A stretch of DNA of 64,000 bases. Origin: Escherichia coli. GTDB taxonomy: Bacteria > Pseudomonadota > Gammaproteobacteria > Enterobacterales > Enterobacteriaceae. Location of the stretch: assembly GCF_022846255.1 (NCBI RefSeq), contig NZ_AP025682.1. One strand, written 5' to 3'. The position numbers were made by a program, and so were the translations under genes. Below, piece after piece: positions 3,190 through 37,921 of this stretch. Numbering within the stretch: the first letter of the stretch is position 1; every line of letters begins with the position of its first letter. The notes below the pieces were generated by a model. It did no database searches, was not told the DNA's origin, and saw nothing but the letters and a program-made list of their open reading frames with translations.

Positions 3190-3501
3190 GACTTATCCAT
3201 CAGACGAGGGAAGAATTCCACCTCAGAGACTCAAAAATCGTTTAAATGATGTGGAAGCGATCGTCAATGTCACCTGTAACGATGAGCTTTCTCATATGCA
3301 CACCACAGTGTTCAGGAGACACGGAAAGGTACCAGGCGGCCTGCTAACGAGTGGTTTCTTCACTAATTAGGACGTAAAATCGGTAACGGCTGGAAATCAT
3401 TCAATACTCACACTATCGAAAGTACACCAGCCAACCGAGATACGTCCCTGCATACGACGTACCGCAGTTATCTTTACGATTTATAGCTGTACTGGTGAAT
3501 T

Positions 3502-3831
3502 ATGAGCAATCTGAATCCATGCATGACGTGTGGTGCCTGTTGTGCATTTTTCCGCGTCTCTTTTTACTGGGCCGAAGCCGACGATGCTGGCGGTACCATT
3601 CCCGCCAGGCTCACTGAACAAATATCCCCTTTTCACCGATGCATGAGCGGTACTAATCAGAAAAATCCCCGATGTATTGCCCTTGCAGGAACACCGGGCA
3701 AAAATGCCTGCTGCACGATATATGAAAATCGATCGTCCACATGCAGAGAATTCGCCATGTCTGGTGAGAACGGAGAAGTCAATGAGGCTTGCAATCGTGC
3801 AAGAGCTAAATACGGGCTAACACCGTTATAA
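3502..3831 (+). CDS. ykgJ: YkgJ, small Cys-rich protein (UPF0153, putative metal-binding), 109 aa
   Basis: Cys-rich motifs ([22 protein letters not shown]); K-12 neighbour of yagU and ecpE. Confidence 0.8.
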
Positions 3832-4079
3832 ATATACAATAATTAATTGCATTGCCCCGCCAGCTGTAATAGCGGGGCTTCGTTTTTCAGGGACAACAAA
3901 ACCTGAAACTTCTTCCATTTTCCAGCAACAATGCCTCTTCTTCTGTAGCGTTCTCCGGATCTACATCATCCTGAAGTAGCGCGATATGATCACTGACTGT
4001 CCGCATCAGAATATGAAAAGCAACGTTTTTAACCTATAAAAATGGCGCTATATTTGCGCCATTTTTATCATTCAAAGCA

Positions 4080-4694
4080 TTATCTATTTGAGCCTAAAGG
4101 GATCTCAGGATCTGGCTCATGGGTAATTCTGTTTCGTAAATCTCTGCGAATAATTTCAATAGACCAGAACCAGACTAAATGTCCAAAAATTTCAGAGACA
4201 TTCTCATACCACGGAAGCTCAAAGAGAGGTGGCGTAAGTCCCATGAGAGGGAATGAAATCATATGAACAAAAAGTTGCGCTAAAGCACCTGCCAGTAAGC
4301 CCTGCCAAAGTTTAATTTTCGGAAATACTTCGGCGACCACACAGTAACCAACGGCAAAAACTATCGAAAAGATTATGTGCGTTACACCAACCCAGTTAAA
4401 GACATGCCCGGCGAAGGTATAAACAGCCGAATTTGGATCTGTCAGTCCCAACCAATCCCGAAGAAAAATGTACGGAGGATTGAGAAAGTTACGGGAGCAA
4501 TCAATTTGGCCTGCAGCCCTGATTAATGATTCCGGACCACACGCTGCATTAAACATATCAACCGGACTACGTGGTGGCAATGGAACTTCTGCCCCCCACT
4601 TAACAAATGCGGAAACAACGCCAGCAATCAGCCCAATGAATGCAGCAAGACCATAACGTCTGCGGTTTGGTGGAGTTTGTTCAAATATATTCAT
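4080..4694 (-). CDS. yagU: Inner-membrane protein YagU (DUF1440), 204 aa
   Basis: Full-length ORF with hydrophobic segments; sequence recognised as YagU. Confidence 0.85.
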
Positions 4695-5082
4695 ATCTAC
4701 CCTGCTTGTACCATTATGTTATACACCTCTTTAGGAGTATTCATAAAACAAGGCAAATGTAAAGAACTGTATTGTTTTGTATAACCACATGGTTACCTAA
4801 TCGCCAATTAATATAAGCTCCATTATTTCTCCATATTTTTATGTTAGAAGTGACAAGGAGAAATGTAATGTTTCTCTCAGAGAATATAAATCATTCCTTT
4901 TGCCCACCTTAATGGTGGGCTTTTTTATGCAAAACCTGAACGTCCTGTGGTATTCCTCTGGCATAATGATTTTCGCGATTAACCAACAACCAGACCAGCA
5001 AAGACGCCACCACAAGCACAGCAACATCCATCAGGCTTGCCACACCCCATGCGTGCGGCTCAAAGCCGCCATGGCATATTAA

Positions 5083-5229
5083 TCCGCTTGCCATTTTCGA
5101 ACAGCTGATTGGTTTAGTCCGGTGTTTCCCTGCTTGCACTTAAAAATGAGCGGATGGGAAACTCTCGAAATGGTTCGTCGATATGCTCACCTCGCACCTA
5201 ATCACCTTACCGAACACGCACGGTAAATA
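5083..5229 (+). pseudogene. 3' remnant of a tyrosine-recombinase (phage-type integrase) gene, about 48 codons, no start
   Basis: Translates to ...[27 protein letters not shown], the typical integrase C-terminus with the RYAHL catalytic-Tyr region; bounded upstream by an in-frame stop; ends 85 bp from the thrW 3' end. Confidence 0.5.
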
Positions 5230-5314
5230 GATTCGATCCTGAACCCATCGGTCCCAAATCTGTCCCAATAAAAAATAAGGAAGGTATTAGTGATGTGTAA
5301 CTTATTGATTTAAA

Positions 5315-5390
5315 TGGTGCCGATAAGAGGAGTCGAACCTCCGACCTTCGCATTACGAATGCGCTGCTCTACCAACTGAGCTATATCGGC
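5315..5390 (-). tRNA. thrW: tRNA-Thr (anticodon CGU)
   Basis: Reverse complement reads GCCGATATAGCTCAGTTGGTAGAGCAGCGCATTCGTAATGCGAAGGTCGGAGGTTCGACTCCTCTTATCGGCACCA: cloverleaf-compatible, CGT anticodon, 3' CCA; sits next to proA as thrW does in K-12. Confidence 0.95.
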
Positions 5391-5504
5391 CCTGAAAGGA
5401 CATGTTCACGAACGTGAATCACGGTGGACAAGGTTAAAACTAACCGGGCGATGCGTCAATGGCCTTGTGAATCAAATGGCTACTTTTGCATCACCCGGTT
5501 TTAT

Positions 5505-6758
5505 TTACGCACGAATGGTGTAATCACCAATGCCGATCCACTTGTAAGTGGTCAGTGCTTCCAGCCCCATTGGGCCACGCGCGTGGAGTTTTTGTGTGCT
5601 TACCGCCACTTCCGCACCCAGTCCAAACTGGCCGCCGTCGGTAAACCGCGTAGAGGCGTTAACGTAAACAGCGGACGAATCCACTTCGTTAACAAAACGC
5701 TGGGCGTTGCGCATATCGCGGGTCAGGATCGCATCGGAGTGTTGTGTGCCGTGTTCACGAATATGGGCGATGGCATCGTCAAGATCGCTGACGATTTTGA
5801 CGTTCAAATCTAATGACAGAAACTCATCGTCATACTCTTCCGCTTTAACAGCCACCACCTTCGCGGGGCCTGTCTGCAACTGCGCCAGCGCAGCTGCATC
5901 TGCGTGTAATGTCACGCCGCTTTCCGCCATTTGTTTGCTTAATGCGGGCAGGAAGCTATCGGCGATGTTTTTATTTACCAGCAACGTTTCTACCGTATTA
6001 CATGTGCTCGGACGCTGAGTTTTCGCGTTGACAATTACTTTCAGGGCTTCAGCGATCTCTGCACTTTCATCAACGTAAATATGGCATACGCCTATACCGC
6101 CTGTGATCACCGGGATTGTCGACTGTTCGCGGCACAGCTTATGCAGCCCAGCGCCACCACGCGGGATCAGCATGTCGATGTATTTATCCATACGCAGCAT
6201 TTCACTGACCAGCGCGCGGTCAGGATTATCAATCGCCTGCACGGCACCCGCCGGTAAGCCACAGGATTTCAGGGCGTCCTGAATCACCGCCACCGTTGCA
6301 GCGTTAGTGCGACAGGTTTCTTTGCCGCCGCGCAGGATCACCGCGTTACCCGTTTTCAGGCACAGCGAAGCGACATCAACCGTCACGTTCGGGCGAGCTT
6401 CATAAATCACGCCAATCACCCCCAGCGGCACGCGACGGCGCTCCAGACGCAGACCACTGTCCAGTACGCCGCCATCGATTACCTGCCCCACCGGATCGGC
6501 GAGATTGCACACCTGGCGCACATCGTCGGCAATGCCTTTCAGCCGTGCGGGCGTCAGTGCCAGACGGTCAAGCATCGCTTCGCTAAGGCCATTGGCACGC
6601 GCGTCTGCAACATCCTGCGCGTTAGCGTTGAGGATACTTTCGCTTTGTGCTTCCAGTTCATCGGCGATTTTTTCCAGCACACGATTTTTTTCGCGGCTGG
6701 AGAGTTGCGCTAATTTATACGAGGCTTGCTTCGCGGCAATGCCCATTTGTTCCAGCAT
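5505..6758 (-). CDS. proA: Gamma-glutamyl phosphate reductase, 417 aa
   Basis: Full-length match to ProA ([38 protein letters not shown]...). Confidence 0.97.
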
Positions 6759-33467: not shown

Positions 33468-34669
33468 TACATTGCCTGGAACAGCGCGTCATCGAGCTGC
33501 GTGCTGGTGGCGATCACTTTGGTGTTGGCCTGATAGTTACGCTGGGCGGTCATCAGGTTAACCAGTTCGCTGGTAATATCGACGTTAGAGCTCTCAAGCG
33601 CTCCCGACGTGAGCGTGCCGCAGGTTCCGGAACCGGGAACACCAATCAGTGGCGTGCCGGATTCCCCGGTTTGTACCCACGCGGTACCGCTTACGGCTTG
33701 CAGGCCGTCGTCGTTAGGGAAAGTCGCCAGCACCACCTGGCCCTGCAACATGCGCTCGCCGTTGCTGTAGGTGGCGTAAACTTTGCCATCGTCATCGACC
33801 TGCACACCGTTCTGAGTCGCGGAGGCGTAGCCGTCGGCGGCGTTGGTGGTGACAGAAAATTCAGAACCGTATTGCGTACAGGTGGAGTAATCGACGGTCA
33901 AATCGATGGGCGCGGCGGCGTCGGTCTGAAACTCAATGGTCTGCGGCGTGGTTGGCGAAGTCAGCTTCCCGGTGTTCGGGTCGAAGGTTAACGTCGTCGC
34001 CGGAACGCCGGTCTGCTGCTGACCGTCGAAGGTGTACTGCACTTCCCAGGTGTTGTCGCTGGTTTTGGTGAAGTACTGGCATACCGAGTGTTCGTTACCT
34101 AATGAGTCGTACACCGTGGTGGTGTAGCTGTCGGTGTACGAGCTGCTGTTGGTCGCGTCGAACGGTACGGTAGTGCGGTCGATAGCGTCGTCGCTGGCAT
34201 CGAAGTTGGCGGTAAAGGTCAGGCTGCTACTGGCCTGCGCCGGAATATTGCCAGTTTTGATCTGGATATCGGTGACTGTACCGGTTTGCAGAGTGCCCGT
34301 GTCATCGACCGGATAGCCCTGCAAATAAGCGCCCGAGGCGTTGACGATATAGCCGTTTTTGTCGGTTTCAAACGATCCAGCGCGGGTATAAGAAATGTTG
34401 CCCGCGCTGTCGCAGGTAACAAAAAAACCGTCGTCGTTAATCGCCAGATCCAGCGCGTTACCAGTGGAGACCAGCGAACCGCCGCGCGAAATACTTTGCG
34501 CGGTGCCCGCCACGCTGACGCCCATCGCCTGGCTTCCGGCATACATGGCGGAAAACTGGGTGGTCATCGACTTATAGCCCACCGTTCCGGCGTTAGCGAT
34601 GTTGTTACTGATCCCGTCGAGCTGTTCGTTAACGGCATTCAGCCCCGTTGCGGCAATTTCATAACTCAT
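33467..34669 (-). CDS. lfgE: Flagellar hook protein LfgE (FlgE-like), 400 aa
   Basis: FlgE-like termini (MSYEIAATGLNAVNEQLDGISNNIANAGTVGYK ... SNVDITSELVNLMTAQRNYQAN). Confidence 0.9.
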   Translation of the reverse strand: MSYEIAATGLNAVNEQLDGISNNIANAGTVGYKSMTTQFSAMYAGSQAMGVSVAGTAQSISRGGSLVSTGNALDLAINDDGFFVTCDSAGNISYTRAGSFETDKNGYIVNASGAYLQGYPVDDTGTLQTGTVTDIQIKTGNIPAQASSSLTFTANFDASDDAIDRTTVPFDATNSSSYTDSYTTTVYDSLGNEHSVCQYFTKTSDNTWEVQYTFDGQQQTGVPATTLTFDPNTGKLTSPTTPQTIEFQTDAAAPIDLTVDYSTCTQYGSEFSVTTNAADGYASATQNGVQVDDDGKVYATYSNGERMLQGQVVLATFPNDDGLQAVSGTAWVQTGESGTPLIGVPGSGTCGTLTSGALESSNVDITSELVNLMTAQRNYQANTKVIATSTQLDDALFQAM

Positions 34670-37365: not shown

Positions 37366-37794
37366 GTGAGTATCCGGTTACAACAGGTGAAGGCGTTGTT
37401 GCAGGGCATTCGTGACGACGACGCACTGTACGATTCCCTGCGCGAACTTCTCCAGCGTCAGCGGATCTGCATGATTCGCCGCGCCAGCGAAGATCTGCTG
37501 GCGGTAAACGACGAGATAACGCAGCACTATGAACAGTTGCATGGGCATAGCCATCAGCGGCACAGCCTGCTGAAAATGCTTAATGTCAGTGTAAATCGTG
37601 ACGGTCTGGCGCAGGTTTTTGCCTGGCTTCCGGCTGTGCAAAAAGCAGCAGCACAACAGTTGTGGCAACGCCTTGAGCAAAAAGCGGAACGCTGCAAAGC
37701 CTACAACGACAAAAACGGCGAGCTGTTGATTCGCCAGTATGAATTTATTCAGTCTTTTTTAGGCGGCGAAACAGATTTTCTGTACCAGGAATAA
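37366..37794 (+). CDS. lfgN: Export chaperone LfgN (FlgN-like), 142 aa
   Basis: Helical ORF immediately downstream of the flgM-like gene. Confidence 0.7.
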   Translation: MSIRLQQVKALLQGIRDDDALYDSLRELLQRQRICMIRRASEDLLAVNDEITQHYEQLHGHSHQRHSLLKMLNVSVNRDGLAQVFAWLPAVQKAAAQQLWQRLEQKAERCKAYNDKNGELLIRQYEFIQSFLGGETDFLYQE

Positions 37795-37921
37795 CGACAA
37801 TTCCTTCCGCCATCGCGGAAACGGATTTTCCGCCTGATTCTCAATCCCTTGTTTTTGATTACAAAAATTCCCGGCACGCTTATTGCACATTCCGCAAAGT
37901 AATAAAGACTGGAAGCCACCT

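Follow-up and report, generated by a model that had tools for sequence, protein, structure and literature searches.

A decayed SfV/P22-type integrase scar at the unoccupied thrW site of Escherichia coli, with probable traces of more than one past occupant

The tRNA gene thrW is a frequent target of integration in Escherichia coli, and the yagU-proA interval adjoining it is the conserved site of the vat island (PMC6592367, PMC7545054). In the stretch of 64,000 nucleotides of E. coli DNA analyzed here, referred to below as the window, this interval appears empty, which raises the question of whether an element was once integrated there and, if so, whether it was the material that occupies the same interval in strain K-12. 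The gene order of the window, which runs in reverse relative to K-12, is ecpE, ykgJ, yagU, a 620-bp spacer, thrW, proA, proB, and phoE. Both ykgJ (3502 to 3831, plus strand; ecpE lies beyond it) and yagU (4080 to 4694, minus strand; a DUF1440 membrane protein) were placed by the annotation of a RefSeq locus with 99.5% identity, in agreement with the gene names proposed in an earlier, sequence-only reading of this DNA. That reading had also described an empty thrW hotspot with yagU next to it and an integrase 3′ fragment beside the tRNA, a description which was borne out, as the 620-bp gap holds no island. The gene thrW itself, encoding tRNA-Thr(CGU) at positions 5315 to 5390 on the minus strand (ARAGORN and Rfam), retains an intact attachment site. 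It is at present unoccupied and, being intact, should still be able to accept new elements. Screening of positions 3800 to 5600 against Rfam at permissive thresholds returned nothing beyond the tRNA, an IS009 match, and subthreshold noise.

The fragment beside thrW was identified by protein and DNA homology as an integrase pseudogene in which ~66 codons survive from the 3′ end of an SfV/P22-type tyrosine recombinase gene, located at approximately 5103 to 5300 on the plus strand and directed toward thrW. In other E. coli strains (comparison locus L006), an intact 372-amino-acid integrase adjoins thrW and ends 14 bp from the tRNA; residues 321 to 364 of this protein aligned by tblastn with positions 5143 to 5274 at 38 of 44 identical residues (86%), across two in-frame stops, and its last residues aligned in another frame of the remnant. 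A second integrase allele, represented by the thrW-side copy in strain E2348/69, pushed the upstream edge of the remnant to approximately 5103 to 5109. The damage consists of two nonsense codons and two frameshifts, namely, a TAG at 5115 to 5117, a 2-bp deletion near 5140, a TAA at 5224 to 5226, and a 1-bp deletion with a TAA at 5269 to 5271. The original stop codon (5298 to 5300) is preserved 14 bp from the tRNA, as in the intact integrases of L006, O157, and phage SfV, and the intervening 14-bp spacer (5301 to 5314) recurs unchanged in the SfV attP and in those prophages whose integrase is intact.

At the DNA level, the 171 bp from 5144 to 5314 displayed 91 to 92% identity to the int 3′ end of phages SfII, SfV, SfI, and SfIV and 76% identity to that of P22, all of which are classic thrW-integrating phages. 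In phage SfV, int is followed by the same 14-bp spacer and then by a 46-nucleotide match to the thrW 3′ end. The remnant is homologous to the C-terminal catalytic domain of tyrosine recombinases, including the motif around the catalytic tyrosine (RYAHL), and the intact relative matches Pfam PF00589 with an E value of 2.8e-48. A full catalytic-domain reading frame is absent, given that ~66 of 372 to 387 codons are left, and the remnant is a pseudogene fragment and not a functional member of the SfV/P22-type integrases; the RefSeq annotation likewise describes a frameshifted integrase interrupted by an internal stop.

These alignments refine the 48-codon integrase frame that had been called at 5083 to 5226. 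The frame is indeed open, with 47 codons and a stop, and aligns with an integrase C terminus as had been supposed (the 38 of 44 residues and the match to the Sf phages detailed above). Only its last 27 codons, however, lie in the true integrase frame, the first 20 being integrase sequence read out of frame upstream of the 2-bp deletion. The distance between frame and tRNA, which had been given as 85 bp, amounts to 88 nucleotides when measured from the stop at 5224 to 5226, and it cannot be regarded as a spacer, as it is itself decayed integrase coding sequence. Pfam searches with the four small open reading frames of the spacer yielded nothing except an integrase match of the 47-amino-acid frame, which on its own was weak and below the cutoff (E = 0.13). 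Such a result might be taken to mean that the site was never occupied and that the integrase-like frame arose by chance, a reading which is refuted by the 91 to 92% DNA identity to Sf phage int across 171 bp and by the 86% protein identity over 44 residues and to which we assign practically no probability.

A second phage-derived fragment occupies the yagU side of the scar. Positions 4975 to 5107 on the minus strand, directed toward yagU, carry a remnant of a lambdoid gene of family phrog_1443, corresponding to residues ~51 to 96 and interrupted by a 5-bp indel, which was recognized through DNA and profile matches. The intact product is a putative membrane protein of 97 amino acids. Bases 4976 to 5103 are 83% identical to part of such a gene in the BL21 Rac prophage, whose 97-amino-acid protein matches phrog_1443 at an E value of 2e-58; the residual open reading frame of the window matches the same family at E values of 2e-14 and 5e-8, and RefSeq labels the residual frame at 4909 to 5094 a hypothetical protein. 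A 9-nucleotide match between the terminator-like hairpin upstream of yagU (see below) and BL21 Rac was considered too short to use.

The phrog_1443 remnant directly abuts the integrase remnant at approximately 5103 to 5107, the two together amounting to ~330 bases of decayed prophage sequence. The gene is found in lambda-like phages, e.g., phage 21. The record of phage PhiR49_2, which follows prophage order, opens with int at one end, and the phrog_1443 gene takes the penultimate position at the other, being transcribed outward. The two remnants of the window keep this order and orientation, the integrase (plus strand) facing thrW and the phrog_1443 fragment (minus strand) facing yagU. Because this arrangement matches the layout of prophage ends, the two fragments are taken to represent the two extremities of one lambda-like prophage. 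The interior that was lost would measure ~40 kb, as judged from the single such phage examined; the attR repeat and anything beyond the phrog_1443 gene are also missing from the window. The direct repeat of the thrW 3′ end for which the sequence-only reading had proposed a search was not encountered within the 64-kb window, even by short-word BLAST, and with no attR copy left in the window we infer the outer boundary of the prophage.

It is, therefore, proposed, with a probability of roughly 85%, that the thrW-yagU interval is the inherited, nonfunctional scar of a lambda-like temperate phage which carried an SfV/P22-type integrase and had integrated at the thrW 3′ end. Under this proposal, a deletion would have removed nearly the whole prophage, joining integrase codon ~306 to codon ~50 of the near-attR gene, and a further loss would have taken the rest of the far end, including the attR repeat. 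The scar would then have gathered its stop codons and frameshifts and passed by vertical inheritance to about a quarter of sequenced E. coli, and later elements (SfV-like prophages, the vat island, and a P4-like defense island) would have integrated on its thrW side.

Given the contents of the interval in K-12, an obvious alternative is that the K-12-like arrangement was deleted and that the fragment is the scar of the integrase of that island. The thrW-yagU interval of K-12 MG1655 was confirmed to harbor the CP4-6 prophage (34 kb) together with yagP-paoDCBA, as the sequence-only reading had stated, and both are absent from the window, in which tblastn with IntF, YagP, and PaoA to PaoD returned no match. 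The integrase of CP4-6, however, argues against this origin, as IntF is of the P4-like kind, is encoded at the far end of the island, faces the opposite way to the remnant, and is unrelated to the integrase family of the remnant (blastp E = 0.44). Alignment with K-12 yielded two homologous blocks, 3401 to 4855 and 5297 to 5700 (the K-12 ptwF repeat matches 5297 to 5366); the 441 bp between the blocks have no K-12 counterpart. Since the window keeps positions 4856 to 4937, which K-12 lacks, it cannot be derived from a K-12-like state by one simple deletion.

Further observations weigh against such a deletion, which we consider very improbable. K-12 has its own, unannotated SfV-type integrase 3′ end of ~60 bp between ptwF and yagP (37774 to 37835 of comparison locus L002), and 948 pao-bearing genomes combine the short scar with an empty thrW. 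The scar of the window is, moreover, shared by at least 1,297 of 5,426 genomes, mostly with a more recent island separating it from thrW, and paoC, present in ~3,600 genomes, is missing genome-wide from the remaining third or so of E. coli. Thus, of the earlier claim that an island had been deleted, the once-occupied site and the deletion scar stand, while the identification of CP4-6 and pao as the lost island does not. On the account favored here, the lack of CP4-6 and pao constitutes a polymorphism of its own which lies outside the scar, and loss of pao and its never having been present both fit the data.

A variant in which pao was ancestral beside yagU and was removed together with the attR end of the prophage, K-12-type genomes having later lost 4856 to 4937, has more in its favor. 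The pao genes adjoin yagU in 3,571 genomes and were never found elsewhere, and the attR end of the old prophage is indeed missing. This scenario would, nevertheless, require an extra event in the K-12-type lineage, the end points of the K-12-type and window-type integrase scars differ, and none of 80 yagU loci from other species had pao within 10 kb. On balance, we regard it as unlikely, though clearly less so than a deletion of CP4-6 and pao. A scan of YagU in one genome per species gave no readout of the ancestral state, the gene being found in unrelated contexts with pao, ykgJ, and proA not nearby.

The distribution of the scar was assessed in 5,426 complete E. coli genomes with positions 4856 to 5142, which span the junction, as the query and a coverage of at least 80% as the threshold. 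The junction-spanning scar was present in at least 1,297 of these genomes, and a query bridging the yagU and proA sides was contiguous in only 80, in which the scar directly adjoins thrW; among these were IAI39, ST648-type strains, and some ST131 strains. The other scar-bearing genomes carry an insertion on the thrW side of the scar. In E2348/69, a partial integrase and insertion sequence elements are followed by a partial tRNA (46 nucleotides in common with thrW) and then by the scar, while in strain 2014C-3075 the SfV-like prophage is complete, its integrase lies intact at thrW, and an SfV-type attR (the 46-nucleotide partial tRNA) adjoins the scar. In PA45B, the vat island lies on the thrW side, with no partial tRNA beside the scar. 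ST131 strains carry a 10.8-kb P4-like defense island, GI-thrW, which has been described previously (PMC4134206) and likewise lacks a partial tRNA at its yagU side.

Comparison of the window with scars of the IAI39 type indicated that the sequence nearest the tRNA has a different source from the remainder. Positions 5104 to 5189 agree with the IAI39-type scar at 84 of 86 positions and have the TAG and the 2-bp deletion in common with it, but positions 5190 to 5300 agree at only 41 of 82 positions with IAI39 and at 103 to 104 of 111 with SfV-type int. Judging by these alignments, two integrase alleles are joined in this chimeric scar, and since the phrog_1443 junction is common to both scar types, a single origin is indicated, with the tRNA-proximal part replaced in one of them. 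The 3′ end of the integrase of an SfV-type prophage and the old scar constitute direct repeats. In the lineage of the window, a newcomer of the SfV type, inserted like the prophage of 2014C-3075, probably recombined through the 3′ end of its integrase gene with the old scar and was thereby lost, leaving its own allele in place of the 110 bp closest to the tRNA; a second, later-lost occupant of thrW thus probably lies behind the chimera.

Relative to K-12, the T-stem of thrW contains a compensated pair (5327 and 5342), G-C replacing U-A. This change falls inside the 46-nucleotide segment common to the SfV-type attP and thrW, which is exchanged upon integration, and is consistent with a phage-derived thrW 3′ end. 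The G-C allele also occurs in strains 2012C-4502 and YL03, and the attR copy of E2348/69 is a hybrid of both alleles. The sole shared stretch available for the proposed crossover, GAAATGGTTCGTCGA, provides ~15 to 17 identical bases, and for this reason the chimera could instead represent a preexisting mosaic integrase allele, with no recombination with a second occupant. If it did arise by recombination with an incoming prophage, it would illustrate prophage loss that is independent of an excisionase.

Integrase remnants of 204 bp were also observed next to the islands of ST131 and YL03, at the end facing thrW, and they are cut within ~3 nucleotides of the codon at which the window remnant is cut (remnants at 5998 to 6201 of comparison locus L005 and at 4991 to 5194 of L007; ST131 island at 33641 to 44596 of L093). 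These thrW-side remnants have different neighbors from that of the window, and GI-thrW of ST131 is flanked by two remnant copies with 86.7% identity. A purely random deletion in situ does not explain a shared truncation point within ~3 nucleotides, and this counts against the prophage-scar interpretation proposed above.

The coincidence would be accounted for if the ~200-bp integrase 3′ segment were a mobile module, i.e., an attP/attL arm overlapping the end of int, which moves along with islands or recombines as one piece and is delivered already truncated; two remnant classes with different neighbors, and an ST131 island that has one such copy on either side and lacks a partial tRNA toward yagU, are what such a module might leave. 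The lesions of the window remnant look random, however, and the abutting phrog_1443 fragment fits the geometry of prophage ends, and a module of this type is accordingly held to be improbable relative to the decayed prophage scar.

The AT-rich stretch that had been noticed before yagU corresponds to positions 4695 to 4937, where the GC content is 33%, compared to 53% for the entire window. Upstream of yagU, homology to K-12 ends at 4855, whereas other Escherichia yagU loci stay homologous to 4931 to 4937. The 82 bp from 4856 to 4937, which K-12 is without, are common to the yagU loci of E. albertii and strain SCPM-O-B-8794, which lie elsewhere in the chromosome. Beyond 4937, no homology was found between the window and the other yagU loci, and a search with the 37-bp junction sequence between the yagU unit and the phage remnant (4938 to 4974) was similarly negative.

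One promoter-like site was predicted for yagU, on the minus strand at 4763 to 4736, and a strong hairpin is situated 3′ of the gene at approximately 4040 to 4068. Divergent from yagU, on the plus strand, a terminator-like hairpin with a T-run (4902 to 4927) is kept in E. albertii and SCPM-O-B-8794 and thus conserved in three Escherichia yagU loci, while in K-12 it is missing or replaced. A 14-codon open reading frame with a Shine-Dalgarno sequence (4868 to 4912, plus strand) runs into this hairpin and was rejected as a small-protein gene. Since E. albertii does not preserve its frame and promoter prediction on the plus strand gave nothing, the unit at 4868 to 4927 may be a small RNA or an insulating terminator.

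On the other side of yagU, between that gene and ykgJ, lies a frameshifted remnant of a tail fiber assembly (Tfa) C-terminal domain (3887 to 4006, minus strand; phrog_105, E = 3e-8), which K-12 has as well and with which the Rfam IS009 match at 3874 to 4074 overlaps; a 39-amino-acid open reading frame at this remnant is named tail fiber assembly protein by RefSeq in ST131. With the phrog_1443 remnant on one side and the Tfa remnant on the other, yagU is flanked on both sides by phage late-gene debris.

As an observation in its own right, yagU and its flanks (4005 to 4937) behave as a discrete unit of ~0.93 kb which recurs at different chromosomal sites (comparison loci L010 and L044), adjoining dsbB-nhaB in E. 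albertii and having, in SCPM-O-B-8794, a yedL-like gene on one side and fliE with an intG-like remnant on the other. The YagU protein is 85 to 91% identical in Vibrio, Aeromonas, Pectobacterium, and Providencia, and such cross-genus identity suggests horizontal movement. Although yagU is usually treated as an ordinary chromosomal gene, its unit was also considered as a possible phage moron, i.e., a self-contained element that brings a promoter and a terminator of its own, sits between phage genes, and turns up in differing contexts. The observations that bear on this are the recurrence at other loci, the flanking phage remnants, the single promoter-like site, and the strong hairpins. We put forward tentatively, and at less than even odds, that the thrW-ykgJ segment is layered prophage debris in which yagU represents a moron-like cassette, with its own promoter and terminator, between truncated phrog_1443 and tfa genes, and in which the short integrase scars next to thrW would serve as substrates for an excisionase-free removal of newly integrated prophages that leaves chimeric scars behind.

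Of the systems already known, the closest is the attL end of SfV/SfII/P22-type thrW prophages, i.e., those of the serotype-converting Shigella phages and Salmonella P22, which have the same integrase family and orientation, the same 14-bp spacer, and the same 46-nucleotide identity segment with the thrW 3′ end. Compared to these prophages, the window retains ~66 codons with four inactivating lesions and lacks xis, the phage body, gtr, and attR. CP4-6 with ptwF of K-12 has the tRNA target and the chromosomal interval in common with the scar but is P4-like, with the unrelated IntF at its far end, and is not its source. In most scar-bearing genomes, the same flank is taken up by islands known from extraintestinal pathogenic E. 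coli, among them the vat island and GI-thrW; no such island is present in the window, which has the unoccupied form observed for 80 of the at least 1,297 genomes carrying the flank. The E. coli integrase pseudogene intG near fliE is likewise a short, nonfunctional remnant fixed in the chromosome; unlike pseudogenes of that type, the window remnant combines two integrase alleles and lies beside a fragment derived from the far end of the same prophage.

The feature as such is ordinary and essentially known, being a RefSeq-annotated pseudogene at a published island hotspot and a minority state of that hotspot, and it has little importance beyond bookkeeping. The additions made here are modest and comprise the two-ended nature of the remnant, the allelic chimera, the K-12 scar, and the position of yagU between phage fragments. 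The locus illustrates that a tRNA hotspot which looks empty can preserve traces of at least two past occupancies and that scoring a locus as present or absent against K-12 says little about what has been deleted. The scar junction may also be of practical use in marking a lineage, namely, the part of E. coli that lacks pao and is prone to carry the vat island. Elsewhere in the window, a flagellar gene cluster (flgK, fliD, and flgE among others), which we take to be probably the Flag-2 lateral flagella locus that is degraded in K-12, was observed between frsA and pepD at approximately 9500 to 34000, and its best full-length match (24.5 kb) among the 5,426 genomes was only 97.5% identical.
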